Both the position numbers and the translations under genes were made by a program. This document shows, piece by piece, positions 29,316 through 61,987 of a DNA stretch of 64,000 bases. Location: NCBI GenBank assembly GCA_945861535.1, contig CAMAUZ010000013.1:37944-101943 (forward strand). Direction: 5' to 3'. This DNA is from Akkermansia muciniphila (GTDB lineage Bacteria > Verrucomicrobiota > Verrucomicrobiia > Limisphaerales > BJHT01). How positions within the stretch are numbered: the stretch's first letter is position 1; the number at the start of each line of letters is the position of its first letter. The notes beneath the pieces were generated by a model, which was not told the DNA's origin, did no database searches, and worked only from the letters and a program-made list of their open reading frames with translations.

Positions 29316-29335
29316 CATCCGAGCCAACCATCACC

Positions 29336-30731: not shown

Positions 30732-30743
30732 TAAAGACCACCC

Positions 30744-31529: not shown

Positions 31530-31536
31530 CTTTTTC

Positions 31537-31610
31537 GCCGGCAAAAAGATGTGCGGTAAAAAATGGGGACTCCTGTTTTTCCTATTTTTCACCGCCCATC
31601 TTTTTGCCGG
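31537..31610. repeat. Palindromic element copy 3 (overlaps the start codon and signal peptide of the downstream gene)
   Basis: GCCGGCAAAAAGATGTGCGGTAAAAAATGGGGA - loop - TTTTTCACCGCCCATCTTTTTGCCGG. Starts 8 nt after the upstream TAA. Confidence 0.9.
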
Positions 31611-37022: not shown

Positions 37023-37074
37023 AAAATGTGATGAAATGGATTCCCCATCTTTTACCGGCCATCTTTTTGCCGGC
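37000..37074. repeat. Palindromic element copy 5
   Basis: GCCGGCAAAAAGATGGGCGGTAAAAAATG - loop - TCCCCATCTTTTACCGGCCATCTTTTTGCCGGC. Contains the upstream gene's stop codon (37020-37022). Confidence 0.9.
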
Positions 37075-37096
37075 CTGTATGCCCAACATTACTCCT

Positions 37097-39691
37097 ATGA
37101 TCACACGCCTCACATTCCTCGGTTTGATTCTCGGTTTATCCTTCTCGTCCGCAGATGCTCAGAATGCCGCCGTCGGTTCGCCCCGGCTGGTTCTGGATGC
37201 GGACACGGGCATAACCATTCGCGAGGGCTTCGACGCTGAATTGCTCTACGAGGTGCCCAAGTCTCAGGGCTCGTGGGTGGCGATGGCGTTTGATCCGAAA
37301 GGCCGGCTCATCGTTTCCGATCAGGATGACAAGGGTGTGTTCCGCGTGACGCTGCCCACCGGGGGTGCCGGAATCAAAGTCGAGAGCCTGCCCGGATTTC
37401 CTTACGAGCCGGTGGACTGGGGGAGGCGCAAGGTCGGCGGTGCGTATGGCTTTCTCTACGCGTTCGATAGTCTCTACATGGCGAACATGCGGGGCTTTTA
37501 CCGCATCCGCGACACAGATGGGGACGACCAGTTTGACGAATTCACGCTGCTGAAGAAACTCGACATGGGCTACGAGCACTCGGCGCACTGCATCATCCAG
37601 ACGGCTGACGGCAAGGGGCTTTATCTGGTGAGCGGAAACTTCACCCGAGTGCCAAAAGGGACCGTTCCCTCGCAGCCGCCGGTATGGCAGGAGGACACGC
37701 TCATGCCCGTGATTCCCGACCCTTCGGGCCACGCCGTGGGACTCAAGCCTCCGGGCGGCTGGATTTGCCGCATTTCACCCGACGGCAGCGACTGGAGGAT
37801 GATTGCGTCCGGCTTCCGCAACTCGGTGGACATCGCGCTGAATCGCGAGGGCGAACTTTTCACTTACGATTCCGACATGGAGTTTGATGTTGGCGTCCCG
37901 TGGTATCGGCCCACGCGCATCAATCACGTCACCAGCGGCGCGGAGTTTGGCTGGAGGGCGAACTCGGGGGTGTGGCTGGACTATTTCGCCGACAGCCTCG
38001 GCTCGGTGCTCGACATCGGCCCCGGCTCCCCGACGGCCATCAGCTTCGGGCATCACTCGAAGTTTCCGGCGGAGTTTCAGGACAAGCTCTTCATCTGCGA
38101 CTGGACGTTCGGCACGATTTTCACCGTGGAGCTGCAGGAAAGCGGTTCGAGCTACACCGGCACGAAGTCGGAGTTTCTCCACGGCAGCCCGCTGAACATC
38201 GCGGCGATGCGCTTCGGGCCGGACGGTGCGATGTATTTCGTCACCGGCGGACGCACGACAGCCTCGCGGCTCTATCGAGTCCGCCACACAGGCGCGCCGA
38301 CGACGGGCGTGCCGAGGACACTGCTGGCCAACAGCGAACTGCGGGTGTTGCGGCATTCGTTGGAGAAATTCCATGCACGCGGCGAGAGCGCCGACGCCGT
38401 GGAAAAGGCATGGCCGCATCTCGCGCACGCTGACCGCAGCATTCGCTACGCAGCGCGCATCGCCATCGAGAACCAGGGCGTGGCGCTCTGGCAGGAAATG
38501 GTCTTCGCGGAGAAGAACCCGCGCGCGGCGATTTATGCCGCCATCGCGTTGACCCGCCATGGCGACAAATCCCTGTCCGGGCGGCTGATTGACAAGCTCG
38601 CCGAGGTGCCATTTGGCTCGCTTGCGCAAGAAGACCAGCTCGCGCTGCTCCGCGCCTACGCGCTGTGTTTTATGCGATTTGGCCTGCCCGCCGAGGATAA
38701 GACGGCGGCAGTCATCGCCAGGCTGGATGCTCATTTCCCGTCTAAGGATGACACGGTGAACGCCGAACTATGCCGTGTGCTGTCATCGCTCGATGCTCCC
38801 ACAGTGGCGCGGAAAACCATCGGGCTGATGAAAGCCACCCGCGTCGAGACAGTGGCCTACGACAAGGCCATGCTGGGCCGTCACGAGTATGGCGCGGCCA
38901 TTTTGAAGATGATGGCCAACACGCCCAACACGCGAAATATCCACTACGCGTATTTCCTGCGGCGCGTGCGAAGCGGGTGGACGCTCGAGGACCGCAAATA
39001 CTTCTTCGGCTGGCTGAACGAGGCGTTGGCCAAGGACGGCGGCAAGAGCTTTGCCGGATACATCCGGGCCATTCGCAAGGACGCCATCGCGCAACTGGAG
39101 ACCAAGGATGTCGAGCTGATGGCCGGGTTGCTGGAGGACTTTCCCGCTTTCGACCTTTCCAAACTCCCGAAGCCCAAAGGCCCGCCTGTCGCATGGACGG
39201 TGGAGACGGCGATGAACCTGTTTGAGCCGGAGCTTCGCGGCCGGGATTTCGCGAACGGGAAGAAGATGTTCGCCGCCGGATACTGCATCGCCTGTCATCG
39301 CGTCGGCGGCGAAGGCGGCCACTCTGGTCCTGACCTCGGCTCGCTGGGAAATCGCTTTTCCATCCGGGACATTCTCGTCGCCATCTGTGAACCCAGCGCC
39401 TCGGTCTCCGACCAATACCTCGCCAGCGTGGTGAAGCTCAAAGACGGCGACACGCTCAACGGCCGCCTCATTTTCAAGAACGACAAGGAAGTCGGCGTCG
39501 CCACGAATCCGTTTGATTTGAACCAGGTCACGAAAGCGCCGGCGGACCAGGTGGTCGGCATCGCTTCCTCGCAAGTTTCGATGATGCCATCGGAGCTGCT
39601 CTCAGGCATGAACCGCGATGAGCTGATGGACCTGATGGCCTATCTGCTCTCAGGCGGAAACTCGCAGCACAAGGCTTTCAAAAAGGAATGA
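37097..39691 (+). CDS. PVC-type heme-binding protein: putative membrane-bound dehydrogenase (beta-propeller) + HEAT-like repeats + C-terminal cytochrome c domain
   Basis: Signal peptide MITRLTFLGLILGLSFSSADA. C-terminal GYCIACHRVGGEGGHSGPDLGSLG heme c motif. Alternative starts are 37079 or 37028. Confidence 0.75.
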   Translation: MITRLTFLGLILGLSFSSADAQNAAVGSPRLVLDADTGITIREGFDAELLYEVPKSQGSWVAMAFDPKGRLIVSDQDDKGVFRVTLPTGGAGIKVESLPGFPYEPVDWGRRKVGGAYGFLYAFDSLYMANMRGFYRIRDTDGDDQFDEFTLLKKLDMGYEHSAHCIIQTADGKGLYLVSGNFTRVPKGTVPSQPPVWQEDTLMPVIPDPSGHAVGLKPPGGWICRISPDGSDWRMIASGFRNSVDIALNREGELFTYDSDMEFDVGVPWYRPTRINHVTSGAEFGWRANSGVWLDYFADSLGSVLDIGPGSPTAISFGHHSKFPAEFQDKLFICDWTFGTIFTVELQESGSSYTGTKSEFLHGSPLNIAAMRFGPDGAMYFVTGGRTTASRLYRVRHTGAPTTGVPRTLLANSELRVLRHSLEKFHARGESADAVEKAWPHLAHADRSIRYAARIAIENQGVALWQEMVFAEKNPRAAIYAAIALTRHGDKSLSGRLIDKLAEVPFGSLAQEDQLALLRAYALCFMRFGLPAEDKTAAVIARLDAHFPSKDDTVNAELCRVLSSLDAPTVARKTIGLMKATRVETVAYDKAMLGRHEYGAAILKMMANTPNTRNIHYAYFLRRVRSGWTLEDRKYFFGWLNEALAKDGGKSFAGYIRAIRKDAIAQLETKDVELMAGLLEDFPAFDLSKLPKPKGPPVAWTVETAMNLFEPELRGRDFANGKKMFAAGYCIACHRVGGEGGHSGPDLGSLGNRFSIRDILVAICEPSASVSDQYLASVVKLKDGDTLNGRLIFKNDKEVGVATNPFDLNQVTKAPADQVVGIASSQVSMMPSELLSGMNRDELMDLMAYLLSGGNSQHKAFKKE

Positions 39692-41932: not shown

Positions 41933-43444
41933 GAACTGGTGGTCTATCCGCCCGTGCCGGGACTGGCGGCGTCGGGACATTACAGAGTGCGCGTGCGTTC
42001 CATCGGCGGTGAATGGCAGAGCGCCTTTGCGTGGGAGACGGCTTGCAAGACCATCGAGAAGAAGACGGACGCCTACTTCGACACGCTGGCGGGATGGACG
42101 CACGCGTACGTGAATTTTGAAACCGACGGCGCGGTAGAGGTCGAAATCACCCGCGCGAACGGCCAGCCGATTCGCACGGCGGCGGTGCATCCGCGGCGCA
42201 AGGCGGCGGCGTGGTCCGTCGTGGATGGCAGGGCGCTCGTGCGGCTCGACCAGCCGTGTCTCGTCGCGGTGGACATTGACGGTCAGATGGACGCGCAGGA
42301 CACCGGCAAGGGCTACAAAGGCCCGCCGATTCACACGGTCTCGATTTTTGCCAACCCGCCGCTGGCCGGAAAACCGAAGCCCGGCAACCCCGGCGTGCTC
42401 ACGGTGAAGCCGGGCGAAAAGCCGCCAACCGACGGGCCGTGGACCACGCTCTATTTTCTGCCGGGGGTTCACGACCTCGGGCTGGCGTTCCCACTGCGCG
42501 CGAACCGCCAGTATTACCTCCCCGGTGACGCGATGGTTTATGGCACGCTCTCCAGCCGGAAATGGGGCGAGGGAAAAAACATCCGCATCTTCGGCCACGG
42601 CACGTTGTCCGGGGCGCGGCTGAAACATCCCGGGCATGTGCAGCCGAAAGTTTCCGACAAAGACCACGGGCTCTATCGCCCCATCGAAATCGTCGGCACC
42701 ACCGACACGCGCGTCGAGGGCATCACCATCGCCGACTCGGCCACGCACTCGCTCATGCTGGTGCATCCGCACCAGCCGGAACATCCCAACGCCGTGCGGT
42801 GGACGAAGATTTTCACCTGGCGCGCGAACGGCGACGGCATCAATCCTTTCGGCAACACGCTCATCGAGGACTGCTTCCTGCGCACGCAGGACGATTCGCT
42901 CTACGTGAACGGCCTCGGCCTCCGCCGCTGCGTGCTGTGGAACGATGCCAACGGCTCGTCGTTCGTGCTCTCCAGCCTGTCGAGCCTCGGCGACCGCAAG
43001 CTGGTCGTGGAGGACTGCGACGTCATCTACTCCCGCGCCAAATGGCATCACTGGAGCGGCGGTCGCGTCTTCAACCTGCGTGCAGAGAATGACGGCCCCG
43101 GCGGCGCGGGCGTCGTCTTCCGCAACATCAACATTGAAGACCCACGACCCACGCTGCAGCAGTTCTTTCTCTGCATGACCGTGCCGCCGCCGTACGCGAA
43201 GCGGGAAGCAAAGAGCAGCGCCGGCGACGTGGCCCGTGTCCTTTTCCAAAACATTTCCATCGCCGCACCGAGTGTGCTGGGCGAGCCGCAAATGCTGTGG
43301 GGAAACGCCAACGCCCGCATCCGCAACCTCACCTTCGAGAACCTTACGCTCGCCGGAAAACCCGCGCTCGCCGCGACATTTTTCAAAACGAACGAGCATG
43401 TCAGCGGCCTGAGTTTCCAGCCCAACACCGTGTCGAACCCGTGA
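41870..43444 (+). CDS. Secreted right-handed beta-helix glycoside hydrolase-like protein (GH28/GH49-like)
   Basis: N-terminus MGGKRWGLLFFLFFTTHLFAG. Motifs GITIADSATHSLML, WRANGDGINPFGN, RTQDDSLYVNG and VLWNDANGSSF. The alternative in-frame ATG 41825 also reads through the element. Confidence 0.6.
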   Translation: MGGKRWGLLFFLFFTTHLFAGELVVYPPVPGLAASGHYRVRVRSIGGEWQSAFAWETACKTIEKKTDAYFDTLAGWTHAYVNFETDGAVEVEITRANGQPIRTAAVHPRRKAAAWSVVDGRALVRLDQPCLVAVDIDGQMDAQDTGKGYKGPPIHTVSIFANPPLAGKPKPGNPGVLTVKPGEKPPTDGPWTTLYFLPGVHDLGLAFPLRANRQYYLPGDAMVYGTLSSRKWGEGKNIRIFGHGTLSGARLKHPGHVQPKVSDKDHGLYRPIEIVGTTDTRVEGITIADSATHSLMLVHPHQPEHPNAVRWTKIFTWRANGDGINPFGNTLIEDCFLRTQDDSLYVNGLGLRRCVLWNDANGSSFVLSSLSSLGDRKLVVEDCDVIYSRAKWHHWSGGRVFNLRAENDGPGGAGVVFRNINIEDPRPTLQQFFLCMTVPPPYAKREAKSSAGDVARVLFQNISIAAPSVLGEPQMLWGNANARIRNLTFENLTLAGKPALAATFFKTNEHVSGLSFQPNTVSNP

Positions 43445-44031
43445 AGGCAACCAACAGCATCAGGACCGCGCTGACACTCCTCACTACCCTGACCCTCGCG
43501 CTGTCGGTTCCTGCGTTGGCCGCAAATCTCCATCTCACCAATGGCGACCTGTTGGGATTCAAGTTCGACTCATGGCAAGGGGGCCATCGCGTGCCTTTCA
43601 TCGCGCGCTGGCCGGGAAAGATTCGCGCGGGCTCCGTCTCAGATCACCTTGTCTGCCAGCTCGATCTTCTCGCGACCTTCGCCGCGTTGACCGGTTCGGA
43701 CGCCTCCGCGCCGGACAGCGTGAACATGCTCCCGGTGCTCACGGGCACGCCATCGACGTCCGTGCGCCGGGAACTCGTGATCACGCCCCAACAAAAGACG
43801 CACATCGCCTTCCGGCACGACGAATGGATTTACATCGGCGCGCGAGGTGGCGGTGGTTTCGCCGGTGCCAAGCCAGGCGATCACGGCCCCGGCGGACCCG
43901 CGGCGCTGAAGCTTTCCGGCGAAGTGAACAGCGACATCGTGGATGGCAAGTTCGTACCCGGCGCCCCAGAGGAGCAGCTCGACGATCTCGGTTCGGACCC
44001 CGGCCAGAAGAAGAACGTGATCGGCCTGTAA
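43441..44031 (+). pseudogene. Sulfatase lacking the N-terminal catalytic half (signal peptide joined to the C-terminal domain)
   Basis: GTG 43441 overlaps the upstream TGA. KATNSIRTALTLLTTLTLALSVPALA is followed directly by WQGGHRVPFIARWPGKI...DDLGSDPGQKKNV. No CxPxR region. An in-frame TAA at 44029 is followed by the sulfatase-tail-like PEYAGWLRMRLADLL. Confidence 0.65.
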
Positions 44032-44325: not shown

Positions 44326-44601
44326 ATGGCGATGGTTTCTGGATTGGTAATCAGCACGGCACGCGATTGCGATATTGCGGCGGTTCAACGGGCGCTCGTG
44401 GCCCGCGAGGGAGTGACGGTGGGCAAGGCCGAGGCCCAATGGATTCCGGTCGTCATCGAGGCGGAGGATGATGTCGGGATGCGCGAGTTGCATGACTGGA
44501 TCGGCACGATCAAGGGCGTGGAATACGTGGATGTGGCGCATGTAAATTTTGACGAAGATCAAGGCGCTTCTCCGGACGATCATCAACACTCCGCCCAGTA
44601 A
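44326..44601 (+). CDS. napD: NapD, NapA-specific Tat chaperone
   Basis: 91 aa. SGLVIS...IPVVIEAEDDVGMRELHDWIGTIKGVEYVDVAHVNFDED matches the NapD layout (compare E. coli IVVVEAEDSETL...VEGVLAVSLVYH). Located directly upstream of napA. Confidence 0.8.
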   Translation: MAMVSGLVISTARDCDIAAVQRALVAREGVTVGKAEAQWIPVVIEAEDDVGMRELHDWIGTIKGVEYVDVAHVNFDEDQGASPDDHQHSAQ

Positions 44602-44608
44602 TTTACCC

Positions 44609-47023
44609 ATGATGCAACGACGTGAATTCAACAAAATGCTCGCTCTCGCGGCGGCCTCGGCGGCTGTCAGGGCGAATGCTCAATCGCCGGCCAGGGTTGC
44701 GCCGGCACCTGCCGGTGACGGCATCGCCTGGGACAAGGCTCCGTGCCGATTTTGCGGCACCGGCTGCCATGTGCGCGTGGGCGTGAAAAACGGGCGCGTG
44801 GTCGCCATCGAGGGCGATCAGCTTGCGGATGTGAACAAGGGGCTGCTGTGCGTGAAGGGTTATCACGTGGGCCTTGCGCTTTACGGCAAGGACCGGCTCA
44901 CGCAGCCGCTGTTGCGGCGCAATGGCGTGCTGGAGCCGATCTCTTGGGAGGAGGCGATTGAGACCATCGCGCAGAAGGTGATGGCAGCGCCGGCGCAGTT
45001 CGCGATTTATGGCAGCGGCCAGTGGACGATCCCGGAGGGCTACGCGGCGAACAAGTTCATCAAGGGCGGTCTTTCGAGCAATCACATCGACCCGAATGCG
45101 CGGCTCTGCATGGCGAGCGCGGTCACGGGCTTTCTCAGCGTGTATGGCGTGGACGAGCCGGCGGGTTGCTACGATGACCTCGACAAGTGCGACGTGCTCC
45201 TCATGTGGGGCAACAACATGGCGGAGATGCATCCGGTGCTTTTCAGCCGGGTGATCGACCGCCGGACGCGCGGGGAAAAGGTGACGCTCATTGATCTCGG
45301 CACGCGGCGCACACGGACGACGGAGTTTTGCGATCACTACCTCGAGTTCCGCCCGAACAGCGATCTCGCGATCATGAACGGCATCGCGCATCTGCTGATC
45401 AAAAAGAACACGTTTGATCCGAAGTTCGTGGAGAAGTTCTGCAACTTCCGCCAGGCGCCCAAGGACCCTGCGGCCTCGCCCGCCGCGCCGTTGCTCGGCG
45501 ATCCGATGAGCTTTGCTGAATACAAGGCGGCGCTCGAACCCTACACGCCGGAGCATGTGGAAAAACTCAGCGGCGTGCCCGCGGAGAAGATTCGGCTGCT
45601 GGGCGATCTTTTCGCGAACAAGGACATCCGCATCACCTCGACGTGGTGCATGGGATTCAACCAGCACACGCGCGGCACGAATGCGAACCGGCTCTGCCAC
45701 GGCATTCACCTGCTCAGCGGACACTTTGGCCGGCCCGGCGATGCGCCCACTTCGCTCACCGGCCAGCCGAGCGCGTGCGGCACGGCGCGCGAAGTCGGCA
45801 CGCTCTGCCATTTCCTGCCCGGCGGCCGGCTCATCCTGAATGCCGAGCACCGGAAGGAGACGGAGAAATTGTGGAATCTGCCGGAGGGCCGCATCAACCC
45901 GAAGATCGGCCATCACACGGTGCTCATGTGGGAGAAATTCTGCACACCGGCGGACAAGGGCGGCGACATCCGCACGCTGTGGGTGCAGGTGACGAATCCC
46001 GGCCAGTCGCTGCCGAATTTGAACAAGCTTTTCAAAGCGAAGGCGGGGCAGCCGGAAAAGTTCCTCATCGTCTCCGATGTCTATCGCACGGCGACGACCG
46101 AGCTGGCGGACCTCGTGCTGCCTTCCGCGATGTGGGTGGAGAAAAACGGCATGTATGGAAACAGCGAGCGCCGCACGCAGCAGTGGTTCCGGATGGTGAA
46201 GCCGCCCGGCGACGCCCGCGACGACGCGTGGCAGATGATCGCCGTCGCCCGCAAGCTGCACGACCTCGGTCACGCCGGCATGAAGGACAAGGACGGACGT
46301 TTCCTTTTCGCCCTGAAGAACGACAAGGGCGAGGAAGTGCCGGTGTGGGAGTGGCCGCGCTACTACGACATCAACGTGGACAAGGTGCTCTTCGAGGAAT
46401 ACCGCGCCTTCAGCCGCTACAAGCACAAGGACCTCGCGCCTTACGACGTGTATGTGAAGTCCCGCGGCCTGCGCTGGCCCGTCGTGCAGCAACCAGACGG
46501 AACATGGCGCGAGACGAAATTCCGCTTCAGCGAGTTCGACGATCCGTATGTGAAAAAGGGCGCGGAGATTCAGTTCTATCATTCCGTCACGAAGGACGAC
46601 AAAGCGCTCATCTGGTTCGCGCCCGCGGAGAGGGCGCCGGAGGAGCCGGATGCGGAGTTCCCCTTCTGGCTCTGCACTGGTCGCGTGCTCGAGCACTGGC
46701 ACACCGGCAGCATGACGCGCCGCGTCCCGCAGCTCCACGCCGCGATGCCGCACGCCTATGTCGAGATGCATCCCGAGGACGCGCGCGAGCGTGGTTTTGC
46801 GAATGGCGAGACCATCGTGGTGAAGACGCGGCGTGGCGAGTTGAAGCTGCCCGTGTGGGTGGATGGACGCGGGCATCCGCCGCGCGGCTCGCTGTTCATT
46901 CCGTTTTTCGATGAGCGCCTGATGTGCAACGACCTGACGATCGACGCCGTCGATCCGATTTCCAAGGAGCCCGACTACAAGAAGTGCGCCGCCACGGTGG
47001 CGCGGGCCGCCGCTACGCCGTGA
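44609..47023 (+). CDS. napA: Periplasmic nitrate reductase catalytic subunit NapA (molybdopterin, [4Fe-4S])
   Basis: Tat signal MMQRREFNKMLALAAASAAVRANA. CRFCGTGCHVRVGVKNGRVVAIEGD...LCVKG cluster motif. Length about 805 aa. C-terminal ...ISKEPDYKKCA. Confidence 0.9.
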   Translation: MMQRREFNKMLALAAASAAVRANAQSPARVAPAPAGDGIAWDKAPCRFCGTGCHVRVGVKNGRVVAIEGDQLADVNKGLLCVKGYHVGLALYGKDRLTQPLLRRNGVLEPISWEEAIETIAQKVMAAPAQFAIYGSGQWTIPEGYAANKFIKGGLSSNHIDPNARLCMASAVTGFLSVYGVDEPAGCYDDLDKCDVLLMWGNNMAEMHPVLFSRVIDRRTRGEKVTLIDLGTRRTRTTEFCDHYLEFRPNSDLAIMNGIAHLLIKKNTFDPKFVEKFCNFRQAPKDPAASPAAPLLGDPMSFAEYKAALEPYTPEHVEKLSGVPAEKIRLLGDLFANKDIRITSTWCMGFNQHTRGTNANRLCHGIHLLSGHFGRPGDAPTSLTGQPSACGTAREVGTLCHFLPGGRLILNAEHRKETEKLWNLPEGRINPKIGHHTVLMWEKFCTPADKGGDIRTLWVQVTNPGQSLPNLNKLFKAKAGQPEKFLIVSDVYRTATTELADLVLPSAMWVEKNGMYGNSERRTQQWFRMVKPPGDARDDAWQMIAVARKLHDLGHAGMKDKDGRFLFALKNDKGEEVPVWEWPRYYDINVDKVLFEEYRAFSRYKHKDLAPYDVYVKSRGLRWPVVQQPDGTWRETKFRFSEFDDPYVKKGAEIQFYHSVTKDDKALIWFAPAERAPEEPDAEFPFWLCTGRVLEHWHTGSMTRRVPQLHAAMPHAYVEMHPEDARERGFANGETIVVKTRRGELKLPVWVDGRGHPPRGSLFIPFFDERLMCNDLTIDAVDPISKEPDYKKCAATVARAAATP

Positions 47024-47029
47024 TGCGCC

Positions 47030-47929
47030 ATGGCTGAAGAACCGAAGAAATCCAAAGGCATCGAGTCCAGCCTCATCGCTGGCGGCATCATCGTGCTCCT
47101 GGCCGTGAGCGGCTACTTCGTGGGCCTGCGGCAGACAAACTCTGCAATCGCGATGACGCGCGCCGTGGCCGTGGTGAAAGCGGACACGCACCGCGATCTC
47201 ACCGGTGCAAAGGACGCGCCCGTTGCGGTGCGCTACATCGATCAGGACTGGTCGCAGAACGGCCCGAACGCAAAGTGGCGAAACTCGCTCGTGGATTTCC
47301 AGCAACCCGCGGGCGTCGCGCCCGGCGCGAACCAGCCGGTCTCCGTGGAGGTGAAGCTGGCGGCATTGAGCGCGCGCGGGAGCCGCCGCGCCTACGACGG
47401 AGCACCGCCGACGGTGCCGCATCCCATCACGCAGGATTCCTCGGCAGCATGCCTCGCGTGTCATGGTCAGGGCTTGCAAGTGAAGGATCGATTTGCCTCG
47501 AAGATCAGCCATCCCAACTACGGGGGAAGCTGCACGCAATGCCATGTATCGTCGCGCGGAGCATTCAGCGCGGCGGATGCGGCTGGGTTTTCCGCCATGC
47601 TCACGGAGAATACGTTTCAGGGCACCGAAGCGCCGCCGAACGGGCCGCGCGCGTGGCCCGGCGCGCCGCCGACCATTCCGCATCGCACGCTGATGCGGAG
47701 CGATTGCATGAGCTGTCACGGTCCGAAGGGGCTCTTTGCATTGCGCACGCCGCACCCCGAGCGGCAGAGCTGCACACAGTGCCACGTGCCCGCCGCCACG
47801 AACGACCAGCGGCAGTTCATTCCCGCGCCGCCGCTGGATGCGGCTGTGGTAACCGCTCCCGCCCCCACTCCAAAACCTGCGCCTGCACCGAAACCAGCAC
47901 CAGCACCGGAGGTCCCGGCAAACCAATGA
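47030..47929 (+). CDS. napB: NapB-like c-type cytochrome, tandem-duplicated (4 CxxCH), N-terminal membrane anchor, Pro/Ala-rich tail
   Basis: Two modules: GAPPTVPHPI...CLACHG...CTQCHV and GAPPTIPHRT...CMSCHG...CTQCHV. TM segment LIAGGIIVLLAVSGYFVG. Tail TPKPAPAPKPAPAPEVP. Confidence 0.7.
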   Translation: MAEEPKKSKGIESSLIAGGIIVLLAVSGYFVGLRQTNSAIAMTRAVAVVKADTHRDLTGAKDAPVAVRYIDQDWSQNGPNAKWRNSLVDFQQPAGVAPGANQPVSVEVKLAALSARGSRRAYDGAPPTVPHPITQDSSAACLACHGQGLQVKDRFASKISHPNYGGSCTQCHVSSRGAFSAADAAGFSAMLTENTFQGTEAPPNGPRAWPGAPPTIPHRTLMRSDCMSCHGPKGLFALRTPHPERQSCTQCHVPAATNDQRQFIPAPPLDAAVVTAPAPTPKPAPAPKPAPAPEVPANQ

Positions 47930-48270
47930 GCGACGCACTATCCAGACGCGGATTTTTCGCAGCGTTTAGCACGCCGTTTGCGCGCAAGGTCGAGGCCGTT
48001 CCTCAGCCCGTCGCGCGTCCTGCCGCGGGATCAGCCGAGGCAAAGGTCGCGGTCGTGCAGGGCCGGTTTTGCCTCGCGCTCACGTCGTTTTGCTCCGTCT
48101 GCATCGAGCGCTGCCCGGTGCCCGGTGCGATGAAAAAGGAACGCGGCGTGCCCATGGTCGTCGCCGACGTCTGCACCGGCTGCGGCGTCTGCCGCGAGGT
48201 CTGCCCGGCACCGCGCAACGCCGTGCTCATGCTGCCCCGACGCCCTTCCACCCGCCGGCATTCCGTATGA
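47926..48270 (+). CDS. NapF-like 4Fe-4S ferredoxin-type protein with RR N-terminus
   Basis: ATGA overlap with the napB stop. SRRGFFAAF N-terminus. CSVCIERCP and CTGCGVCREVCP cluster motifs. 114 aa. Confidence 0.6.
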   Translation: MSDALSRRGFFAAFSTPFARKVEAVPQPVARPAAGSAEAKVAVVQGRFCLALTSFCSVCIERCPVPGAMKKERGVPMVVADVCTGCGVCREVCPAPRNAVLMLPRRPSTRRHSV

Positions 48271-48602
48271 ACGACTCCACTCAAAACTCCACGCCGCCAC
48301 CGCTGCCGGAATTGCGCCAGGCCACGTTCGACGCCGCCGAACTGGAGACGCTGCTGCGCGACATCGGCGCGTGCGCGCAGATCACCGAGGTCATCCCGAA
48401 ATACTCCGCCACCGGTCACGTGCCGGAGAACGCGACGCTCACGCTCGAAGACGGACGCCGCCTGCTGCTCGATGGCGGCGCGCGGGCCGTGCAGTTTCGC
48501 TACCGCTACCAGGATGCCGACTGGTGGGACACCGTCATGGCGCTTCCCGGCGGCCAGTTTCGCCTCGTCCGCATCCAGCACCAATTTGATTCCGCCGCAT
48601 GA
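48267..48602 (+). CDS. Hypothetical 111-aa protein inside the nap operon (no signal peptide, no recognisable motif)
   Basis: ATGA overlaps at both ends (48267-48270 and 48599-48602). The composition is not shadow-ORF-like. Confidence 0.55.
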   Translation: MNDSTQNSTPPPLPELRQATFDAAELETLLRDIGACAQITEVIPKYSATGHVPENATLTLEDGRRLLLDGGARAVQFRYRYQDADWWDTVMALPGGQFRLVRIQHQFDSAA

Positions 48603-49249
48603 GCCGACTGCTGAAAAAACATCCCGGCCTCGCATGGATCGCCCTCGTCGTATTCACCAGCGTGTGCAGCCTCGCCGTCCTCTGGGCGCAAAAGAACCGC
48701 TCCACAACGGCGGTGGCGCCAGCCGTGAAAAGCGAGGCAAAGCCGGATCTACATCCCGTGACCATCAAGCCCGGCCCGCCGACGCCGCGGCTCGATACCG
48801 GGCTCAAGGATCCCCACGGCAAGCCCATCACCGTCGCGTGCAGCACCTGTCACAGCACCACCACACCGAACGCCGATCGCAAAACTGCGCACGACCTCGT
48901 CCAAGCTCACCGCGGCCTCAGCTACGCCCACGGCAACCTCACCTGCCTGAGCTGCCACAACGCGAAAGACTACGACACGCTGCATCTCGCCGACGGCCGC
49001 AGCGTCGCATTCCCCGACGTGATGACCCTCTGCGCGCAATGCCACGGCACCGCCATGCGCGACTACACGCACGGCAGCCACGGCGGCATGACCGGCCACT
49101 GGGACCTCACCCGCGGGCCGCGCGTAAAAAACAACTGCGTCAACTGCCACGACCCGCACCATCCGAAATTCCCGCTTGTGAAACCCGTGCTCCCGCCGCG
49201 CGACCGCATCTCCGTTCCGAAGGAACCCGCCGGCAACGACAAACACTGA
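48599..49249 (+). CDS. Membrane-anchored tetraheme c-type cytochrome (cytochrome c3/ActA/NrfB-like, not NirT/NapC-like)
   Basis: N-terminal TM helix LAWIALVVFTSVCSLAVLW. Four CxxCH motifs (CSTCH, CLSCH, CAQCH, CVNCH). Confidence 0.75.
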   Translation: MSRLLKKHPGLAWIALVVFTSVCSLAVLWAQKNRSTTAVAPAVKSEAKPDLHPVTIKPGPPTPRLDTGLKDPHGKPITVACSTCHSTTTPNADRKTAHDLVQAHRGLSYAHGNLTCLSCHNAKDYDTLHLADGRSVAFPDVMTLCAQCHGTAMRDYTHGSHGGMTGHWDLTRGPRVKNNCVNCHDPHHPKFPLVKPVLPPRDRISVPKEPAGNDKH

Positions 49250-49262
49250 CCCCCACCGCATC

Positions 49263-50252
49263 ATGCCCGATCCAGCCTCCGAAAAACCAAAGACGCCCTG
49301 CTCCGGCAATTGCTCCTGCGCCGGCGGAAACACCACGCCGCCCGCATCCGCCAATGGCACCACCCGGCGCGCGGTGCTCAAGGGCATCGGCGCCACGCTC
49401 GGCATCGCCGCGTATGCAAAGGCGCTTGCCCCGCTCACCGAACTGACGAAGCAGACCTCGATGGATGAGTTCCTGCAAAAGCACTACAAGGAACTCTCGA
49501 AGGACGAAATCGCCACCGTCCTCAAGCGCCTCACCCGCGAGACCAAGGAGCAATACGGCGCCGACGTCACCATCAACGACCCGAAGCCCATCGACGGCGT
49601 GAAATTTGGCTACGCGCTGAACCTCTCCATCTGCAACGGCTGCCGCAAATGCGCCGAAGCCTGCCACATCGAGAACAATCACGACCGCCCTTCGCACCAG
49701 AGCTACATCCGCGTCTTCGAGATGACCAAGGGTTCCATGGATTTCGAGAAGGCCAACGCGCACTACGACCACCCCGTCCCGCAGCCCGACAAATACTACA
49801 TGCCCGTGCAGTGCCAGCAGTGCGAACACCCGCCGTGCGTGGACGTATGCCCCGTCGAGGCCACGTGGAAGGAAAAGGACGGCATCGTCGTCGTGGACTA
49901 CAACTGGTGCATCGGCTGCCGCTACTGCGAGGCCGCATGCCCGTATCACGCCCGCCGCTTCAACTGGCAGAAGCCGCAGATTCCCGCCGCCGAAATCAAC
50001 CCGGTCCAAAGCTACCTCAGCAACCGTATCCGTCCGCAGGGCGTCATGGAAAAATGCACCTTCTGCCTGCACCGCACGCGCAACGGCCGCCTTCCCGCCT
50101 GCCTCGAAGCCTGCCCCACCGGCGCGCGTGTCTTCGGAGATCTCAACGACCCGAATTCGGAAATCCGTTGGGTGCTCGAAAACAAGCGCGTCTTCGTCCT
50201 CAAGGAGGAACTCGGCCTGAAACCGCAATTCTTCTATTTCTTCGATGAGTAA
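49263..50252 (+). CDS. Tat-exported 4Fe-4S cluster protein, NrfC/PsrB/DmsB family
   Basis: TRRAVLKGIGATLGIAAYA Tat motif. Cluster motifs CNGCRKCAEAC, CQQCEHPPCVDVCP, CIGCRYCEAACP and CTFC...ACLEACP. Confidence 0.85.
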   Translation: MPDPASEKPKTPCSGNCSCAGGNTTPPASANGTTRRAVLKGIGATLGIAAYAKALAPLTELTKQTSMDEFLQKHYKELSKDEIATVLKRLTRETKEQYGADVTINDPKPIDGVKFGYALNLSICNGCRKCAEACHIENNHDRPSHQSYIRVFEMTKGSMDFEKANAHYDHPVPQPDKYYMPVQCQQCEHPPCVDVCPVEATWKEKDGIVVVDYNWCIGCRYCEAACPYHARRFNWQKPQIPAAEINPVQSYLSNRIRPQGVMEKCTFCLHRTRNGRLPACLEACPTGARVFGDLNDPNSEIRWVLENKRVFVLKEELGLKPQFFYFFDE

Positions 50253-51576
50253 TCCCGCCGCCGCGCCCGAAATTCCAGCCGTCGGAAAGCCAGTCCCCGA
50301 GTGGCGACAATACATCCGCTTTGGCTGGAACGCCGTCAGCCAGTCCTTCGAGGGCGGCTGGAAATTCTACGTCTGGATGATCCTGCTCACCGCGATCTTC
50401 CTCGTCGGCGCCAACGCCTGGGCCATCCAGGTACGTGACGGCATGGCCGCCACCGCGATGAGCGACCACGTCTCGTGGGGCCTCTACATTGCAAACTTCA
50501 CCTTCCTCGTCGGCCTTGCCGCCGGCGGCGTGATGATGGTCATCCCCGCCTACCTTTACCACGACGAGGAGATGCACGACATCGTGATCGTGGGCGAACT
50601 GCTCGCCATCGCGTCCATCATCATGTCCATCATGTTTGTCGTGTGCGACCTCGGCCGGCCCGACCGCTTCTGGCACATGATTCCGGGGCTCGGGAAATTC
50701 AACTTCCCCGTCTCCATGCTCACGTGGGATGTCATCGTGCTGAACGGCTACCTGCTCATCAACGTGCACATCTGCGGCTACCTCCTCTACAAGCGCTTCC
50801 GCGCGCAAAAGCCCGTCGCGAAAATGTATGTGCCCGCCGTGCTGCTCAGCATCGTCTGGGCCATCAGCATCCACACCGTCACCGCATTTCTCTACTGCGG
50901 CCTCGGCGGACGCCCCTTTTGGAATACCGCGCTGCTCGCTCCGCGCTTCCTCGCCAGCGCATTCGTCAGCGGCCCCGCATTTCTCATCGTCGCCATCCAG
51001 ATCATTCGCCGGCAGACGGGACGGATGTTCGGCGAGGGAGCCATCCGCACGCTGGTGGGCATCATTCGCATCACCATCCTCATCAGCCTGCTCATGGTCG
51101 TGTCGGAAGTCTTCGTCGAGTTCTACACCGGCGGCAGCCACACCGGCGCGGCGAAGTATCTCTACTTCGGCCTGCACGGGCACCACGAACTCGTCCCGTG
51201 GATCTGGAGTTCCGTCGCCGCGACGGTCATCGCCGTGATCCTCTTCATGCAGCCGCAGGTGAACCGCCGCCCGTTCATCCTCAACACCGCCTGCCTCCTC
51301 GCCTTTGCCGGCCTGTGGATCGAGAAGGGAATGGGAATGATCATCCCCGCCTTCGTTCCCAGCACGCTCCACGAAATCGTCGAATACCGCCCGAGCCTCA
51401 CCGAATGGAAAATCACCGCCGGCATCTGGGCGCTCGGCCTCATGATCTACACGCTCCTCATCAAGATCACGATCAACGTCCACAGCCGCAAACTCCGCGA
51501 CGCCAGCGGCGCAAGAACCGTGACGCCCGACGACGCGATGGCGATGAGGGAAGACAGCGCAAGTTCGGTCATCTGA
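50245..51576 (+). CDS. NrfD/PsrC-family integral membrane quinol-interacting subunit
   Basis: 8-nt overlap with the upstream gene (ATGAGTAA). Multiple TM helices throughout, with polysulfide-reductase NrfD-like organisation. Confidence 0.8.
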   Translation: MSNPAAAPEIPAVGKPVPEWRQYIRFGWNAVSQSFEGGWKFYVWMILLTAIFLVGANAWAIQVRDGMAATAMSDHVSWGLYIANFTFLVGLAAGGVMMVIPAYLYHDEEMHDIVIVGELLAIASIIMSIMFVVCDLGRPDRFWHMIPGLGKFNFPVSMLTWDVIVLNGYLLINVHICGYLLYKRFRAQKPVAKMYVPAVLLSIVWAISIHTVTAFLYCGLGGRPFWNTALLAPRFLASAFVSGPAFLIVAIQIIRRQTGRMFGEGAIRTLVGIIRITILISLLMVVSEVFVEFYTGGSHTGAAKYLYFGLHGHHELVPWIWSSVAATVIAVILFMQPQVNRRPFILNTACLLAFAGLWIEKGMGMIIPAFVPSTLHEIVEYRPSLTEWKITAGIWALGLMIYTLLIKITINVHSRKLRDASGARTVTPDDAMAMREDSASSVI

Positions 51577-52812: not shown

Positions 52813-54171
52813 ATGAAATCCACATCCTTCCTCCTCGCCCTCCGTACGGCGCTAGTCAGCCTGTCTGGTCTTTCAAATGCCGCCGAAGCTGCCACGCCCA
52901 ACGTCATCGTCATCCTCGCCGACGACCTCGGCTACGAATGCATCGGGGCCAACGGCGGCAAGTCCTACCAGACGCCGCACCTGGACCGCATTGCGCGCAC
53001 GGGTGTGCGCTTCGAGCAGTGCTATGCGCAGCCAAACTGCACGCCGACGCGCGTGCAAATGATGACCGGCATGTCGAACGTGCGGAACTATGTGGACTTC
53101 GGCTCGCTTGAGAAATCGCAGACGACCTTTGGCCATTTGTTCCGCGATGCCGGCTACGCCACCTGCATCGCCGGCAAGTGGCAGCTCGGTTCCAAGGACG
53201 CCACGTTGCCCCGGCACTTCGGCTTCGATGAGCACTGCCTGTGGTCGCTGCTCGGACGCGGCGAGCGCTACGCCGATCCCAGCCTCTCGGTGAATGGCGA
53301 GTTCAAAACCTTCGCCGGAAAATACGGGCCGGACGTGTGCCAGGAGTTCGTCGTCGATTTCATCCGCCGCAATCGCAGCAAGCCGTTCCTCATCTATTAC
53401 CCGATGATCCTCACGCACGGTCACTACGAGGCGACGCCGGACAGCAAGGACTACGGCCAGCCGACCGCGAGGGCGAAGGCGTCCAATCAGCAACACTTCG
53501 CCGACATGGTGGCCTACATGGACAAGCAGATCGGCGGCTTGCAGAAGGAACTCGAATCCCTCGGCCTGAGCGACAACACGCTCCTCCTCTTCACCGGCGA
53601 CAACGGCACGGGCCGCGGTGCGACCTCGAAGCTGGAGGACGGCAGCGAGCAAGACGGGGAAAAGGGCAGCACCACCCGCGGCGGCATGCATGTGCCCCTC
53701 ATCGCGAGCTGGCCCGGCAAAATGAAGCCCGGCACCGTCTGCCCCGACCTCGTGGACATGACCGATTTCCTGCCCACGATCAGCGAAGCCGCGGGCGTGG
53801 CCGTGCCGAACGCGCTGCCCATCGACGGCCGCAGTTTCCTCCCGCAAGTGCGCGGCGAGAAGGGCCAGCCTCGTGATTGGATCTACAGCTACTGGGTGCC
53901 GCTGCGCGCGTCGCAAACCGGGAATGTCGGCAGTCGCGGCGCGGTGGAACAGGCGTTTGATCGTCACTTCAAGCTCTACAGCACCGGCAAGTTTTTCGAC
54001 CTCGACCGCGACGTGGAGGAGAAATCGCCGCGGCGAGTTGCAGACTTGCAAGGCGAAGCAGCGGCCGCCGCGCGCAAACTCCAGGCGGCGCTCGACCAAT
54101 TCAAAGATGCCCGGCCCGCCAGTCTGAGTCCGCCGGTTGTGCCCGGTGAAAAGAAAAGAAAGAACAAGTGA
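52813..54171 (+). CDS. Sulfatase (arylsulfatase A family)
   Basis: Signal peptide. NVIVILADDLGYE, CTPTRVQMMTG (CxPxR) and LLFTGDNG motifs. Confidence 0.85.
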   Translation: MKSTSFLLALRTALVSLSGLSNAAEAATPNVIVILADDLGYECIGANGGKSYQTPHLDRIARTGVRFEQCYAQPNCTPTRVQMMTGMSNVRNYVDFGSLEKSQTTFGHLFRDAGYATCIAGKWQLGSKDATLPRHFGFDEHCLWSLLGRGERYADPSLSVNGEFKTFAGKYGPDVCQEFVVDFIRRNRSKPFLIYYPMILTHGHYEATPDSKDYGQPTARAKASNQQHFADMVAYMDKQIGGLQKELESLGLSDNTLLLFTGDNGTGRGATSKLEDGSEQDGEKGSTTRGGMHVPLIASWPGKMKPGTVCPDLVDMTDFLPTISEAAGVAVPNALPIDGRSFLPQVRGEKGQPRDWIYSYWVPLRASQTGNVGSRGAVEQAFDRHFKLYSTGKFFDLDRDVEEKSPRRVADLQGEAAAAARKLQAALDQFKDARPASLSPPVVPGEKKRKNK

Positions 54172-54211
54172 CCGCAAACTCGGAAAACTAAATTGCCCCT
54201 GCAATAACCCC

Positions 54212-55657
54212 ATGAAATCCACACTCACCCCCTCTTACCGTCTCCTCTTTATCTTCGCCGTCGCGCTGTGCGGCGTCAGCCTCCACGTCCACGCCGCCAA
54301 GAAGCCCAACGTCCTGTTCCTCTTCGCTGATGACCAGTGTTTCGAGACCATCCGCGCGCTCGGTCACACCGACATCGACACGCCCAATCTCGACCGGCTC
54401 GTCGGGCGCGGCACCACGTTCACGCGCGCTTACAACATGGGGTCGTGGAGCGGCGCGGTGTGCGTCGCCAGTCGCACGATGCTCATCACCGGCCGCAGCG
54501 TGTGGAACGCGGAGTCCATTTACAAAGCGACCGACAAGGAACGCCAGGCCGGTGTGCTCTGGCCGCAGTTGATGAGCCAGGCCGGCTACCGCACCTATTT
54601 CACCGGCAAGTGGCACATCCAGACCGACGCCGCGAAGTGCTTCGATGTCGCGCGCCACATCCGCGCCGGCATGCCCAAGGACACGCCCAGCAGTTACAAT
54701 CGTCCGCCCGCGACCGGCGCGGACACCTGGAGTCCCTACGACACTTCGCTCGGCGGCTTCTGGGAAGGCGGCAAACACTGGAGCGAAGTGGCCGCGGACG
54801 ATGCCGTGGATTTTCTCGGCGAGGCGAAACAGCAGGCGAAACCGTTCTTCATGTATATCGCCTTCAACGCGCCGCACGACCCGCGGCAGTCGCCCAAGGA
54901 ATACGTGGACAAGTATCCGCTCAGCCGCATCGCAGTGCCGAAAAGTTTCCTTCCCGAATATCCGCACAAGGAAGCCATCGGCTGCAGCCCCTCGCTGCGC
55001 GATGAGAAGCTCGGGCCGTTCCCGCGCACGGAACAGGCCGTGAAAGTTCACCGGCAGGAATACTACGCGCTCATCACGCATCTCGATGCGCAGATCGGCC
55101 GCATCCTCGACGCGCTCGACCGGTCCGGGCAGGCGGACAACACCTGGATTTTCTTCACCGCCGACCACGGGCTCGCCCTCGGCCATCACGGTCTGTTCGG
55201 CAAACAGAACATGTATGACCACAGCGTGCGCGTGCCCTTCGTCGTGGCCGGGCCCGGCGTGGCGAAGAACCGCCGGCACGACGCCGCGATTTATTTGCAG
55301 GACGCGATGGCCACCGCGCTCGACCTCGCCGCAGCGCCGAAGCCCGCGCACGTTTTCTTCCACAGCCTGCGTCCGTTGCTCGACGGCAAGCAGAGGCAGT
55401 CGAGCTACGAGTCGGTTTACGGCGGCTACCTTCAACTCCAGCGCGCCATCACGCACGACGGCTGGAAGCTCATCGCCTATCCGAAAGCGGGCGTCGTCCG
55501 CCTGTATCACCTCGCGAAGGACCCGTTGGAGATGACCGACCTCGCCGCCGATCCGAAGCACGCGCAGCAGAAACGTGAACTCTTCACCCGCCTCGTCGCC
55601 TTGCAGAAAAGTCTCGCCGACAAGGTGGACTTGGCCGCCGTTTTCCCCAAACTCTGA
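54212..55657 (+). CDS. Sulfatase (CxAxR-variant signature)
   Basis: Signal peptide MKSTLTPSYRLLFIFAVALCGVSLHVHA. NVLFLFADDQ, CVASRTMLITG and FFTADHG motifs. ATG 54212 lies after the upstream stop. Confidence 0.8.
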   Translation: MKSTLTPSYRLLFIFAVALCGVSLHVHAAKKPNVLFLFADDQCFETIRALGHTDIDTPNLDRLVGRGTTFTRAYNMGSWSGAVCVASRTMLITGRSVWNAESIYKATDKERQAGVLWPQLMSQAGYRTYFTGKWHIQTDAAKCFDVARHIRAGMPKDTPSSYNRPPATGADTWSPYDTSLGGFWEGGKHWSEVAADDAVDFLGEAKQQAKPFFMYIAFNAPHDPRQSPKEYVDKYPLSRIAVPKSFLPEYPHKEAIGCSPSLRDEKLGPFPRTEQAVKVHRQEYYALITHLDAQIGRILDALDRSGQADNTWIFFTADHGLALGHHGLFGKQNMYDHSVRVPFVVAGPGVAKNRRHDAAIYLQDAMATALDLAAAPKPAHVFFHSLRPLLDGKQRQSSYESVYGGYLQLQRAITHDGWKLIAYPKAGVVRLYHLAKDPLEMTDLAADPKHAQQKRELFTRLVALQKSLADKVDLAAVFPKL

Positions 55658-55672
55658 CCGCTCCGCCCAACG

Positions 55673-57073
55673 ATGCTCATGAAACACCTCCGCCGCCTGC
55701 TTCTCCTGCTTTCGTGCCTTCCGTGGCTCACTCACGCCGCGCCGCCGAACCTCCTGCTCATCATCGCCGACGACTGCACCTATCGCGACCTCGGTGTGTA
55801 TGGCGGGCAGGCGAAGACGCCGCATCTCGAGCGACTCGCCGGCGAGGGCATGAAGTTCACCCGCTGCTTCCAGGCCGCGCCGATGTGCTCGCCCACGCGG
55901 CATTGCCTCTACACCGGGCTCTACCCCGTGAAATCCGGCGCGTATCCGAATCACACGATGGCCTACGACTGGGTGAAGAGCATCGCGCATTACCTCCAGG
56001 ACGCGGGCTACACCACTCACCTCTCCGGCAAGACGCACATCAATCCGAAGTCCGTCTTCCCCTTCCAATACAGCGGCGACAACAACCCCGACCCCGCCGC
56101 CTTTGACGCCGTGCTCAAGGGCAGCGCGCAGTCGGGAAAGCCGTTCCTCTTCATCGCCGCATCGAATGAGCCGCATTCGCCGTGGAACAAGGGCGACCCC
56201 TCGCAGTATCCGCCCGCGTCACTGAAGCTGCCGCCCGTGCTCGTGGATTCGCCCGACACGCGCGCGGACTTCGCGAAGTATCTCGCGGAGATCACCTTCT
56301 TCGACTCGCAGGTCGGCGAACTCGTCGGCCTGCTCGACCGCTCGCCGCTGCGCGACAACACGCTCGTGATCGTCTTGAGCGAGCAGGGCAACAGTTTCCC
56401 CTTCGCGAAATGGACCTGCTACGACGTGGGCCTCGCGAGCGGCTGCATCACGCGCTGGCCCGGCAAGGTGAAAGCCGGCTCGGTCAGCGACGCACTCATC
56501 GAGTATGTGGACGTGACGCCGACATTTCTCGAAGCGGCGGGCGTCGCGCGTCCGGCCATCCTCAACGGACGCAGCTTCGTCCCCGTGCTCACCGGCGCGG
56601 CGACGGCGCACAAGACGCACGTCTTCGGCTTGCAAACCACGCGCGGCATCATCAATGGCTCCGACCATTACGGCATCCGCTCCGTGCGCGACACGCGCTA
56701 CCGCTACATCCACAACCTCACGCCCGAAGTTAAATTTCAAAACGCCGCCACGAAAGAACCAACCTTCAAGACGTGGGAGAAGATGGCCGCCGCCGGCGAC
56801 GCCAACGCGCAACGGCTCGTCCACGATTACCAGCATCGCCCCGCCGAGGAACTCTTCGACTGCGAGGCCGATCCGTGGAACCGCACCAACCTCGCCACCG
56901 ACCCAAAGTTCGCCGCGCAACTCGCCTCCCTGCGCGCGCAACTCGATGGCTGGATGAAGCAGCAGGGCGACGCCGGTCAGGCGACCGAGATGAAAGCCCT
57001 CGAACGCATGCCGAAGAACAGCAAGAGCGACGAAACGCCGACCAAGAAAGCGAAGCAGAAAGCCGGGCAATGA
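55673..57073 (+). CDS. Sulfatase
   Basis: NLLLIIADDCTYRDLG, CSPTRHCLYTG and VIVLSEQG motifs, plus a signal peptide. Confidence 0.85.
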   Translation: MLMKHLRRLLLLLSCLPWLTHAAPPNLLLIIADDCTYRDLGVYGGQAKTPHLERLAGEGMKFTRCFQAAPMCSPTRHCLYTGLYPVKSGAYPNHTMAYDWVKSIAHYLQDAGYTTHLSGKTHINPKSVFPFQYSGDNNPDPAAFDAVLKGSAQSGKPFLFIAASNEPHSPWNKGDPSQYPPASLKLPPVLVDSPDTRADFAKYLAEITFFDSQVGELVGLLDRSPLRDNTLVIVLSEQGNSFPFAKWTCYDVGLASGCITRWPGKVKAGSVSDALIEYVDVTPTFLEAAGVARPAILNGRSFVPVLTGAATAHKTHVFGLQTTRGIINGSDHYGIRSVRDTRYRYIHNLTPEVKFQNAATKEPTFKTWEKMAAAGDANAQRLVHDYQHRPAEELFDCEADPWNRTNLATDPKFAAQLASLRAQLDGWMKQQGDAGQATEMKALERMPKNSKSDETPTKKAKQKAGQ

Positions 57074-61949: not shown

Positions 61950-61987
61950 CTCCCCCTCCGCAGACAACTCCCGGAACAACGGACACT

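Follow-up and report, generated by a model that had tools for sequence, protein, structure and literature searches.

A nap gene cluster with a tetraheme cytochrome, FeS protein and NrfD-type membrane subunit in Verrucomicrobiota and Planctomycetota: a candidate quinol dehydrogenase module for periplasmic nitrate reductase

Gene content and nap core of the cluster

In textbook periplasmic nitrate reductase (Nap) systems, electrons from quinol arrive via NapC or NapGH, and Nap is considered non-electrogenic downstream of the quinol pool. The 64-kb stretch of the verrucomicrobial contig CAMAUZ010000013.1 analysed here (64,000 nucleotides, called the window below) contains a nap cluster of another composition, with eight tightly packed genes, all on the + strand, at 44326-51576. 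Eight co-directional open reading frames (ORFs) had been proposed for this region in the original prediction; all of them are present, and the same eight genes were called independently on identical metagenome contigs. They are listed here with their predicted products and, in brackets, the basis of each assignment (aa, amino acids; FeS, iron-sulfur; Tat, twin-arginine translocation; Mo-bisMGD, molybdenum bis-molybdopterin guanine dinucleotide; TMH, transmembrane helices):

44326..44601, + strand: napD-like chaperone gene, 91 aa (PF03927, position 5′ of napA)
44609..47023, + strand: napA, Mo-bisMGD catalytic subunit, 804 aa (NF010055, Tat signal)
47030..47929, + strand: tandem NapB, 299 aa (PF03892, internal repeat, 4 CxxCH)
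47926..48270, + strand: small ferredoxin, NapF-like, 114 aa (gene position, sequence motifs)
48267..48602, + strand: orf111, conserved accessory protein, 111 aa (conservation among relatives; without family match)
48599..49249, + strand: cyt4, membrane-anchored tetraheme cytochrome c, 216 aa (4 CxxCH, N-terminal helix)
49263..50252, + strand: Tat-exported four-cluster FeS subunit of the NrfC/PsrB/DsrO type, 329 aa (PF13247, DsrO model)
50245..51576, + strand: NrfD-family integral membrane subunit, predicted to interact with quinol, 443 aa (PF03916, NF045798, ~10 TMH)

All junctions are overlaps of 4-8 nucleotides (nt) or gaps of at most 13 nt. Start and stop codons overlap as ATGA at 47926, 48267 and 48599, and the FeS gene and the NrfD-type gene overlap at 50245 in ATGAGTAA; these four overlaps had been pointed out before and, read directly from the sequence, they are real. 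The gaps measure 7 nt (napD/napA), 6 nt (napA/napB) and 13 nt (cyt4/FeS gene), and the block is flanked by ~290-300 nt of non-coding DNA per side. Scans for sigma-70 promoters and intrinsic terminators inside the cluster gave results at or below the shuffled-control expectation. Because these scans were uninformative, it is from the spacing that we infer a single operon of eight genes.

A palindrome resembling FNR/CRP sites, TTGACGAAGATCAA, was found at 44549-44562, inside the 3′ end of napD and 47 nt before the napA start. It has one mismatch to TTGAT-N4-ATCAA and is the sole one-mismatch FNR site in the window; a window-wide search for FNR boxes with up to two mismatches returned 13 matches against 15.4 expected, which is not above chance.

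The 804-aa protein scored 911.1 bits against the model NF010055, above the cut-off of 904, and 867 bits against TIGR01706, under the cut-off of 930.55, and its alignment with the E. coli NapA structure 2nya gave 744 bits. The N terminus, MMQRREFNK..., is a Tat twin-arginine leader, and the alignment to 2nya showed that the CRFCGTGC FeS motif and the context of the Mo-ligand Cys (PNARLCMASAV) are kept. Judged by these scores and motifs, the protein is a genuine NapA of the NapAB type, and nitrate reductase activity is predicted. The 91-aa protein encoded in front of it is NapD-like, with 26.9 bits against PF03927 (cut-off 28) over positions 3-75 of the 76-residue profile.

The product of the third gene had been described as a NapB-like tetraheme protein, and this description could be refined. 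The protein matched PF03892 with 39.1 bits (cut-off 25.1), and an internal repeat was found in which residues 119-173 align with residues 206-253, each repeat carrying the pattern PPT(V/I)PH...CxxCH...CTQCHV. The four CxxCH motifs are at 141, 168, 226 and 248, and the repeats lie between one hydrophobic segment (residues 15-33) and a Pro/Ala-rich tail. By these features, the 299-aa protein carries the NapB diheme domain twice in tandem, which gives four heme sites, behind an N-terminal hydrophobic anchor. Its C terminus (47813-47926) is a low-complexity Pro/Ala/Lys tail, APAPTPKPAPAPKPAPAPEVPANQ. Matches to the protein in related loci span roughly 80-98% of its length, and the ends may vary. 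The exact 299-aa sequence is missing from a collection of 15 billion proteins in which the seven neighbours are present; the choice of an alternative start codon by gene callers is one possible reason.

The 114-aa ferredoxin has an N-terminal SRRGFF motif and two 4-Cys (2x[4Fe-4S]) motifs. It matched Fer4-type models only; RnfB, PorD and NapG matches were weak and all under cut-offs, and the label NapF-like, given from position and motifs only, seems reasonable. For orf111 there was no Pfam or NCBIfam match, and a Pfam search with 36 orf111 homologues gave noise only. The protein is without a signal peptide and has the conserved motif Q-x-RY...W-x-DT...R-L-V-R-I. An AlphaFold2 (AF2) model (predicted local distance difference test score, pLDDT, 85) is that of a small alpha/beta protein with a beta-alpha-beta-alpha-beta3 layout. 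A Foldseek search of the Protein Data Bank (PDB) with this model gave nothing significant (best E 0.04, template modelling score, TM, <0.5), with scattered weak matches of the Mog1/PsbP/SciW kind. As orf111 invariably follows napB/napF, its product could be an assembly factor; a cytoplasmic role in NapA maturation or assembly is proposed for NapD and the NapF-like ferredoxin and probably applies to orf111 too.

Family assignment of the cytochrome, FeS protein and membrane subunit

The original prediction held that the last three genes encode neither NapC nor NapGH, and their classification with curated models bore this out: none of the three proteins is NapC, NapG or NapH. For cyt4, the NapC/NirT model PF03264 gave 18.1 bits, under the cut-off of 24.1, with a match that spans only 38-75 of the 174 profile positions, and TIGR02161 matched 14 of 25 family members with E 0.014 at best. 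As a positive control, the true NrfH encoded in a related verrucomicrobial locus (L029) scored 66.6 bits on the NirT-family model, so that phylogenetic distance does not account for the low scores of cyt4. The possibility that cyt4 is a quinol dehydrogenase of the NapC/NirT type was rejected, as both models stayed below threshold.

Nor did cyt4 fit any other curated Pfam or NCBIfam family above its cut-off. The NrfB model NF008659 gave 26.8 bits (cut-off 184), the DsrJ model NF038038 matched 2 of the 25 family members at E 0.6, and a cyt4 profile found no real relative among PDB sequences. The family comprises 188 clusters at 50% identity (E≤1e-30). In the 25-sequence alignment, four CxxCH motifs and four further His residues are invariant, and it is therefore suggested that all four hemes are bis-His ligated. 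The AF2 model from the same alignment had a pLDDT of 51 overall, and only the N-terminal helix, residues 9-32, was confident (>90).

The FeS subunit contains PF13247 (Fer4_11) and four Cys motifs for FeS clusters, read from the translation. Its DsrO score was 199.8 bits against a cut-off of 200, and the further best curated models were QrcC (163.8 bits, cut-off 400), TtrB (145), ArrB and NrfC TIGR03149 (124.9, cut-off 377.6), with the QrcC and NrfC cut-offs both far from reached. NapG models were absent from the 25 best families for this protein. In the PDB, the closest chains are those of PsrB (2vpw_B) and the ActB FeS domains. The Tat motif is TRRAVLK, and [ST]RRxxxK is conserved across related loci. 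A Cys-rich stretch, CSGNCSC (residues 12-18, 49296-49316), precedes the twin-arginine motif in the n-region. Relatives from Verrucomicrobiaceae have CGGNCSC at this place and Haloferula has CGSGCGC, while other lineages lack the stretch; Cys clusters are unusual within Tat signal peptides.

The membrane subunit had been called NrfD-like rather than NapH-like, and this assignment stood: PF03916 matched with 145 bits, ~10 hydrophobic helices were counted, and the translation contains no CxxCxxCxxxCP motif or Cys clusters. Across the whole window, too, a scan found no ORF with two or more of these motifs. The reading of the FeS and membrane proteins as a NapGH pair was therefore rejected, from the PF03916 match, the ~10 TMH without Cys clusters and a list of best 25 families for the FeS protein in which NapG does not occur.

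Within the NrfD family, the membrane subunit reached 426.1 bits on the DsrP equivalog NF045798, above the cut-off of 350, whereas it gave 31.7 bits on NrfD TIGR03148 (cut-off 347.6) and 53.3 on QrcD (cut-off 570). The nearest solved structures are ActC chains of alternative complex III (ACIII), namely 6f0k_C, 8k9e_C and 6btm_C. An invariant pair, E360-K361, aligns with E394-R395 of ActC in 6f0k, a mid-membrane position proposed as a proton gate, and D. vulgaris DsrP also has Lys there (PMC8076601). The likeness to NrfBCD or ACIII that had been suggested was thus supported, with a refinement: the architecture is NrfBCD-like and ActC is the nearest structure, but by sequence the FeS/membrane pair comes nearest to DsrO/DsrP and the ActC clade and not to E. 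coli NrfCD.

These scores bring up the reading that the last genes are a sulfur module of the DsrJOP type that stands beside nap by chance. The DsrP score exceeds its cut-off (426 vs 350), the DsrO score all but equals its own (199.8 vs 200), the order cytochrome-FeS-membrane is that of dsrJ-O-P, and NCBI names the Prosthecobacter and Limisphaerales relatives 'DsrMKJOP subunit DsrP'. On the other side, the cytochrome is tetraheme, and the DsrJ model hardly touches its family (2 of 25 members, E 0.6). The genes that surround the module in related loci, described below, make this reading close to negligible. In public databases the membrane-subunit relatives are named 'DsrMKJOP subunit DsrP', 'polysulfide reductase NrfD' or 'HybB-like', and the cyt4 relatives are 'hypothetical' or 'nitrite reductase c552 subunit'. 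The DsrP name in nap-linked loci of the Planctomycetes-Verrucomicrobia-Chlamydiae (PVC) group, which comes with NF045798 (for example in relatives P0187 and P0199), is likely a systematic mis-annotation.

Linkage of the module to nap in related loci

In a scan of genomes, one per species, at least 469 stretches were found that encode a cyt4 relative, and the best 80 were inspected. Their content was determined by tblastn with the eight window proteins, and a locus was taken as informative when it had at least 4 kb on both sides. The 80 loci are labelled almost all as Verrucomicrobiota or Planctomycetota; the few other labels (Candidatus Methylomirabilota, 'uncultured Bifidobacterium') are taken to be mis-assignments. 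Cultured strains among them are Adhaeretor mobilis, Novipirellula sp. SH528, Haloferula rosea, Haloferula sp. BvORR071 and Rhodopirellula maiorica.

The cyt4-FeS-NrfD module adjoins napA in 68 of 80 loci, and contig ends cut the remaining 12; napA is beside the module in all 39 informative loci. Three arrangements were found: nap first on one strand (n=15), which includes the Prosthecobacter-like relatives of the window; module first (n=15); and nap and module divergent (n=38). The linkage has survived repeated rearrangement in two phyla, and it is therefore strong evidence of a functional unit. The tie to nitrate respiration that had been claimed for the module is supported by this comparison, and Nap with an NrfD-type module is a lineage-wide feature of the PVC group, not peculiar to this genome.

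The remaining genes of the cluster were followed in the 55 complete related loci. The tandem NapB was found in all 55, orf111 in 48, a NapD homologue in 45 and the NapF-like ferredoxin in 34. Pirellulales loci in which tblastn missed NapD have a divergent NapD (23.8 bits) at the same position. Exactly four CxxCH motifs are present in 62/62 tandem-NapB homologues of related loci, and the 4+4 heme motifs of cyt4 and the tandem NapB are kept in all homologues.

No other ORF with at least three CxxCH motifs, such as a gene of the NapC/NirT type, was found within 10 kb in 79 of the 80 loci, the exception being the NrfHA pair of L029. Recurrent neighbours are an Rrf2-family regulator (17 loci; for example L012:2173-2763), ScdA/RIC, a hemerythrin protein for the repair of iron centres (6; L007:418-1266), a MOSC-domain protein (6; L042:12958-13482) and NrfHA (1; L029:3653-5786); none of these genes is in the window. 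The Rrf2, ScdA/RIC and NrfHA neighbours fit nitrate, nitrite and NO physiology. No recurrent neighbour family resembles a dsr gene, and the flanking genes are nap in every informative locus; on this synteny, the reading of the module as a sulfur module that lies beside nap by chance was rejected.

The neighbourhoods also bear on the view that the module is a general quinol:periplasmic-cytochrome oxidoreductase hub for several reductases (NrfA, NO/N2O), with the linkage to nap reflecting co-regulation. A hub would agree with cyt4 and the tandem NapB each being membrane-anchored and able to interact transiently, with the module forming a separate divergent transcription unit in 38 loci, and with the nrfHA pair near the module in L029. 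However, this locus provides NrfA with a separate NrfH, genes for other reductases are not recurrent next to the module, and adjacency to nap in 39/39 informative loci despite three gene orders is stronger than expected for a shared hub. We regard a hub as unlikely.

A reverse direction was considered as well, in which electrons run as in Qrc, from periplasmic donors to the quinone pool, or in which the NapA homologue oxidises a substrate and delivers electrons to quinone. The homologous QrcCD module reduces quinone (PMC8076601), and NapA falls under one of its two equivalog cut-offs (TIGR01706, 867 vs 930.55). Against this, NapA passes NF010055, aligns with E. coli NapA at 744 bits, keeps the catalytic Cys context and is accompanied by NapB and a NapD-like protein; the Qrc scores are far under their cut-offs (QrcD 53 vs 570, QrcC 164 vs 400); and no hydrogenase or formate dehydrogenase gene recurs in the related neighbourhoods. 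A reverse direction is thus highly improbable.

In the window itself, nothing else related to nitrogen was found in 64 kb, which hold mostly sulfatases, PhoD-like genes and PSCyt/PSD-DUF1552 pairs. The upstream neighbour of the nap block is a truncated sulfatase gene (43441-44031) and the downstream neighbour a short DUF1080-type gene; three full sulfatase genes follow at 52813-57073 and another at 61463-63607. With such neighbours, the nap block seems to be part of a region for polysaccharide degradation or to have been inserted there. Five paralogous pairs of a large PSCyt/PSD protein (DUF1592/DUF1588/DUF1585, with cytochrome-c-like CxxCH) and a DUF1552 protein (HXXSHH) lie at 4400-16767 and 23969-34035, three of them in direct tandem, a high local density of these PVC signature genes. 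An FAD-dependent oxidoreductase with a Golvesin_C domain is encoded at 35571-37022, and next to it, at 37028-39691, an 887-aa protein that has a cytochrome c domain at its C terminus.

Proposed electron route and comparison with known systems

Taken together, these results make it probable that cyt4, the FeS protein and the membrane subunit form a (mena)quinol dehydrogenase that serves Nap specifically and is of a third type, found across the PVC group, in which an NrfD/DsrP-type protein, a 4x[4Fe-4S] protein and a tetraheme cytochrome replace NapC or NapGH. In the route that we propose, modelled on NrfCD/PsrBC-type modules, the NrfD-type subunit would bind and oxidise menaquinol, and electrons would pass through the four [4Fe-4S] clusters of the FeS protein to the four bis-His hemes of cyt4. 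From there they would reach the four hemes of the anchored tandem NapB, then the [4Fe-4S] cluster of NapA and Mo-bisMGD, where nitrate would be reduced to nitrite in the periplasm. The direction of flow, the assembly of the proteins into a physical complex and menaquinone as the quinone species are parts of this proposal.

Several points weigh against it. All members are known from sequence and gene context, and NrfCD-type modules run either way in different complexes, so that the direction is deduced from the reductase nature of NapA. NapD and NapF are weakly assigned, as both score under cut-offs. The survey covered loci, and NapC/CymA or NapGH may possibly be encoded elsewhere in the genomes. 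The inspected loci are the best 80 of at least 469, and more distant cyt4 relatives may sit in other contexts. Co-transcription is not general, because the module is divergent from nap in 38 loci.

A more tentative proposal is that PVC Nap may conserve energy, with the transfer of electrons from menaquinol to nitrate (~0.5 V) coupled to proton translocation. Such translocation is conceivable, purely by inference, given a membrane subunit of the ActC/DsrP branch in which the Glu-Lys pair is retained; we consider it possible, though doubtful. If true, it would contradict the textbook non-electrogenic view of Nap and would, by homology, provide the first functional model for DsrJOP, as a stand-alone quinol:periplasmic-cytochrome oxidoreductase. 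The function of DsrJOP is still termed an enigma (PMC10861901), and the module described here offers a simpler homologue.

The third input module appears to be standard in two large, environmentally abundant phyla, Verrucomicrobiota and Planctomycetota. Metagenome pipelines with napC or napGH as markers, or those that rely on labels such as 'DsrP' and 'polysulfide reductase', would misjudge the nitrate-reducing potential of both. Cultured carriers (Haloferula rosea, Adhaeretor mobilis, Novipirellula sp. SH528 and Rhodopirellula maiorica) make direct testing possible.

In our literature search, no dedicated study of a PVC Nap with an NrfD-type module was found, and mentions were limited to one sentence. 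The description of Lacipirellula parvula has one sentence on a NapA operon with FeS and NrfD-like subunits (PMC6995999), and a metagenome study noted a multiheme-FeS-NrfD cluster 3′ of nap in two Planctomycetota metagenome-assembled genomes (PMC10732223). A comprehensive review of the NrfD family lists no Nap-associated member (PMC8076601), and papers on Deferrivibrio, Thermosulfurimonas, Caldithrix, Acididesulfobacillus, cable bacteria, Desulfurivibrio and Sporomusa report other arrangements. The cluster is not new as a category: its building blocks are known, as is the principle that modules are exchanged, and it had been glimpsed earlier. It is an essentially uncharacterised Nap variant and closes a real gap.

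With the NapAB and NapC systems of Paracoccus, Rhodobacter and E. coli, the cluster shares a Tat-exported NapA of the heterodimeric type, a NapD-like chaperone, donor hemes of the NapB type and an anchored tetraheme protein. It differs in that the tetraheme protein is not of the NirT family, that an FeS protein and an NrfD-type polytopic protein, the presumed quinol site, are added, and that NapB is duplicated in tandem and membrane-anchored. NapGH of Wolinella succinogenes and E. coli is likewise a NapC-independent route made of a Tat-exported poly-FeS protein and a membrane protein. However, NapH has 4 TMH and two cytoplasmic FeS motifs, whereas the partner in the window belongs to the cofactor-less NrfD family with ~10 TMH; the FeS protein is of the NrfC/PsrB/DsrO type and not NapG; and there is an extra tetraheme cytochrome.

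E. coli NrfBCD has the same three-part layout, in which a multiheme cytochrome of the periplasm, an FeS protein with four clusters that is exported by Tat, and NrfD pass quinol electrons to a periplasmic N-oxide reductase. All three Nrf models are nevertheless far under their cut-offs (NrfC 125/378, NrfD 32/348, NrfB 27/184), NrfB is pentaheme and soluble whereas cyt4 is tetraheme and anchored, and the client would be NapAB instead of NrfA. Qrc (QrcABCD) is also distant, with QrcC at 163.8/400 and QrcD at 53.3/570, and there is no QrcB-like gene besides napA.

DsrJOP shares the best sequence matches, the gene order (anchored cytochrome c, FeS protein, membrane protein), ~10 TMH and the mid-membrane Lys where ActC has Arg. 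In contrast to DsrMKJOP, the cytochrome has four hemes and not three, with a bis-His pattern suggested instead of the His/Cys and His/Met ligation of DsrJ; in the loci searched, there is no DsrMK partner, and nap genes adjoin the module both in the window and in all 39 informative loci.

In ACIII, ActC is the nearest solved structure to the membrane subunit, and the C-terminal domain of ActB is among the nearest to the FeS subunit. ACIII is a quinol:periplasmic-acceptor oxidoreductase with a multiheme subunit, the type of enzyme predicted here for the window module. Compared with ActABCDEF, the window module is without the molybdopterin-like N-terminal domain of ActB and without ActD, ActE and ActF, and it has one NrfD-type subunit whereas ACIII has two (ActC and ActF). 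Its cytochrome is tetraheme where ActA is pentaheme, and the 329-aa FeS subunit aligns only with the C-terminal FeS part of ActB. Finally, the nap cluster of Caldithrix abyssi, which includes Rieske/cytochrome b genes, is a precedent for a non-canonical quinol-oxidising module and for module swapping (PMC5317091), although the module in the window is entirely different and Caldithrix has NapGH and NapM as well.

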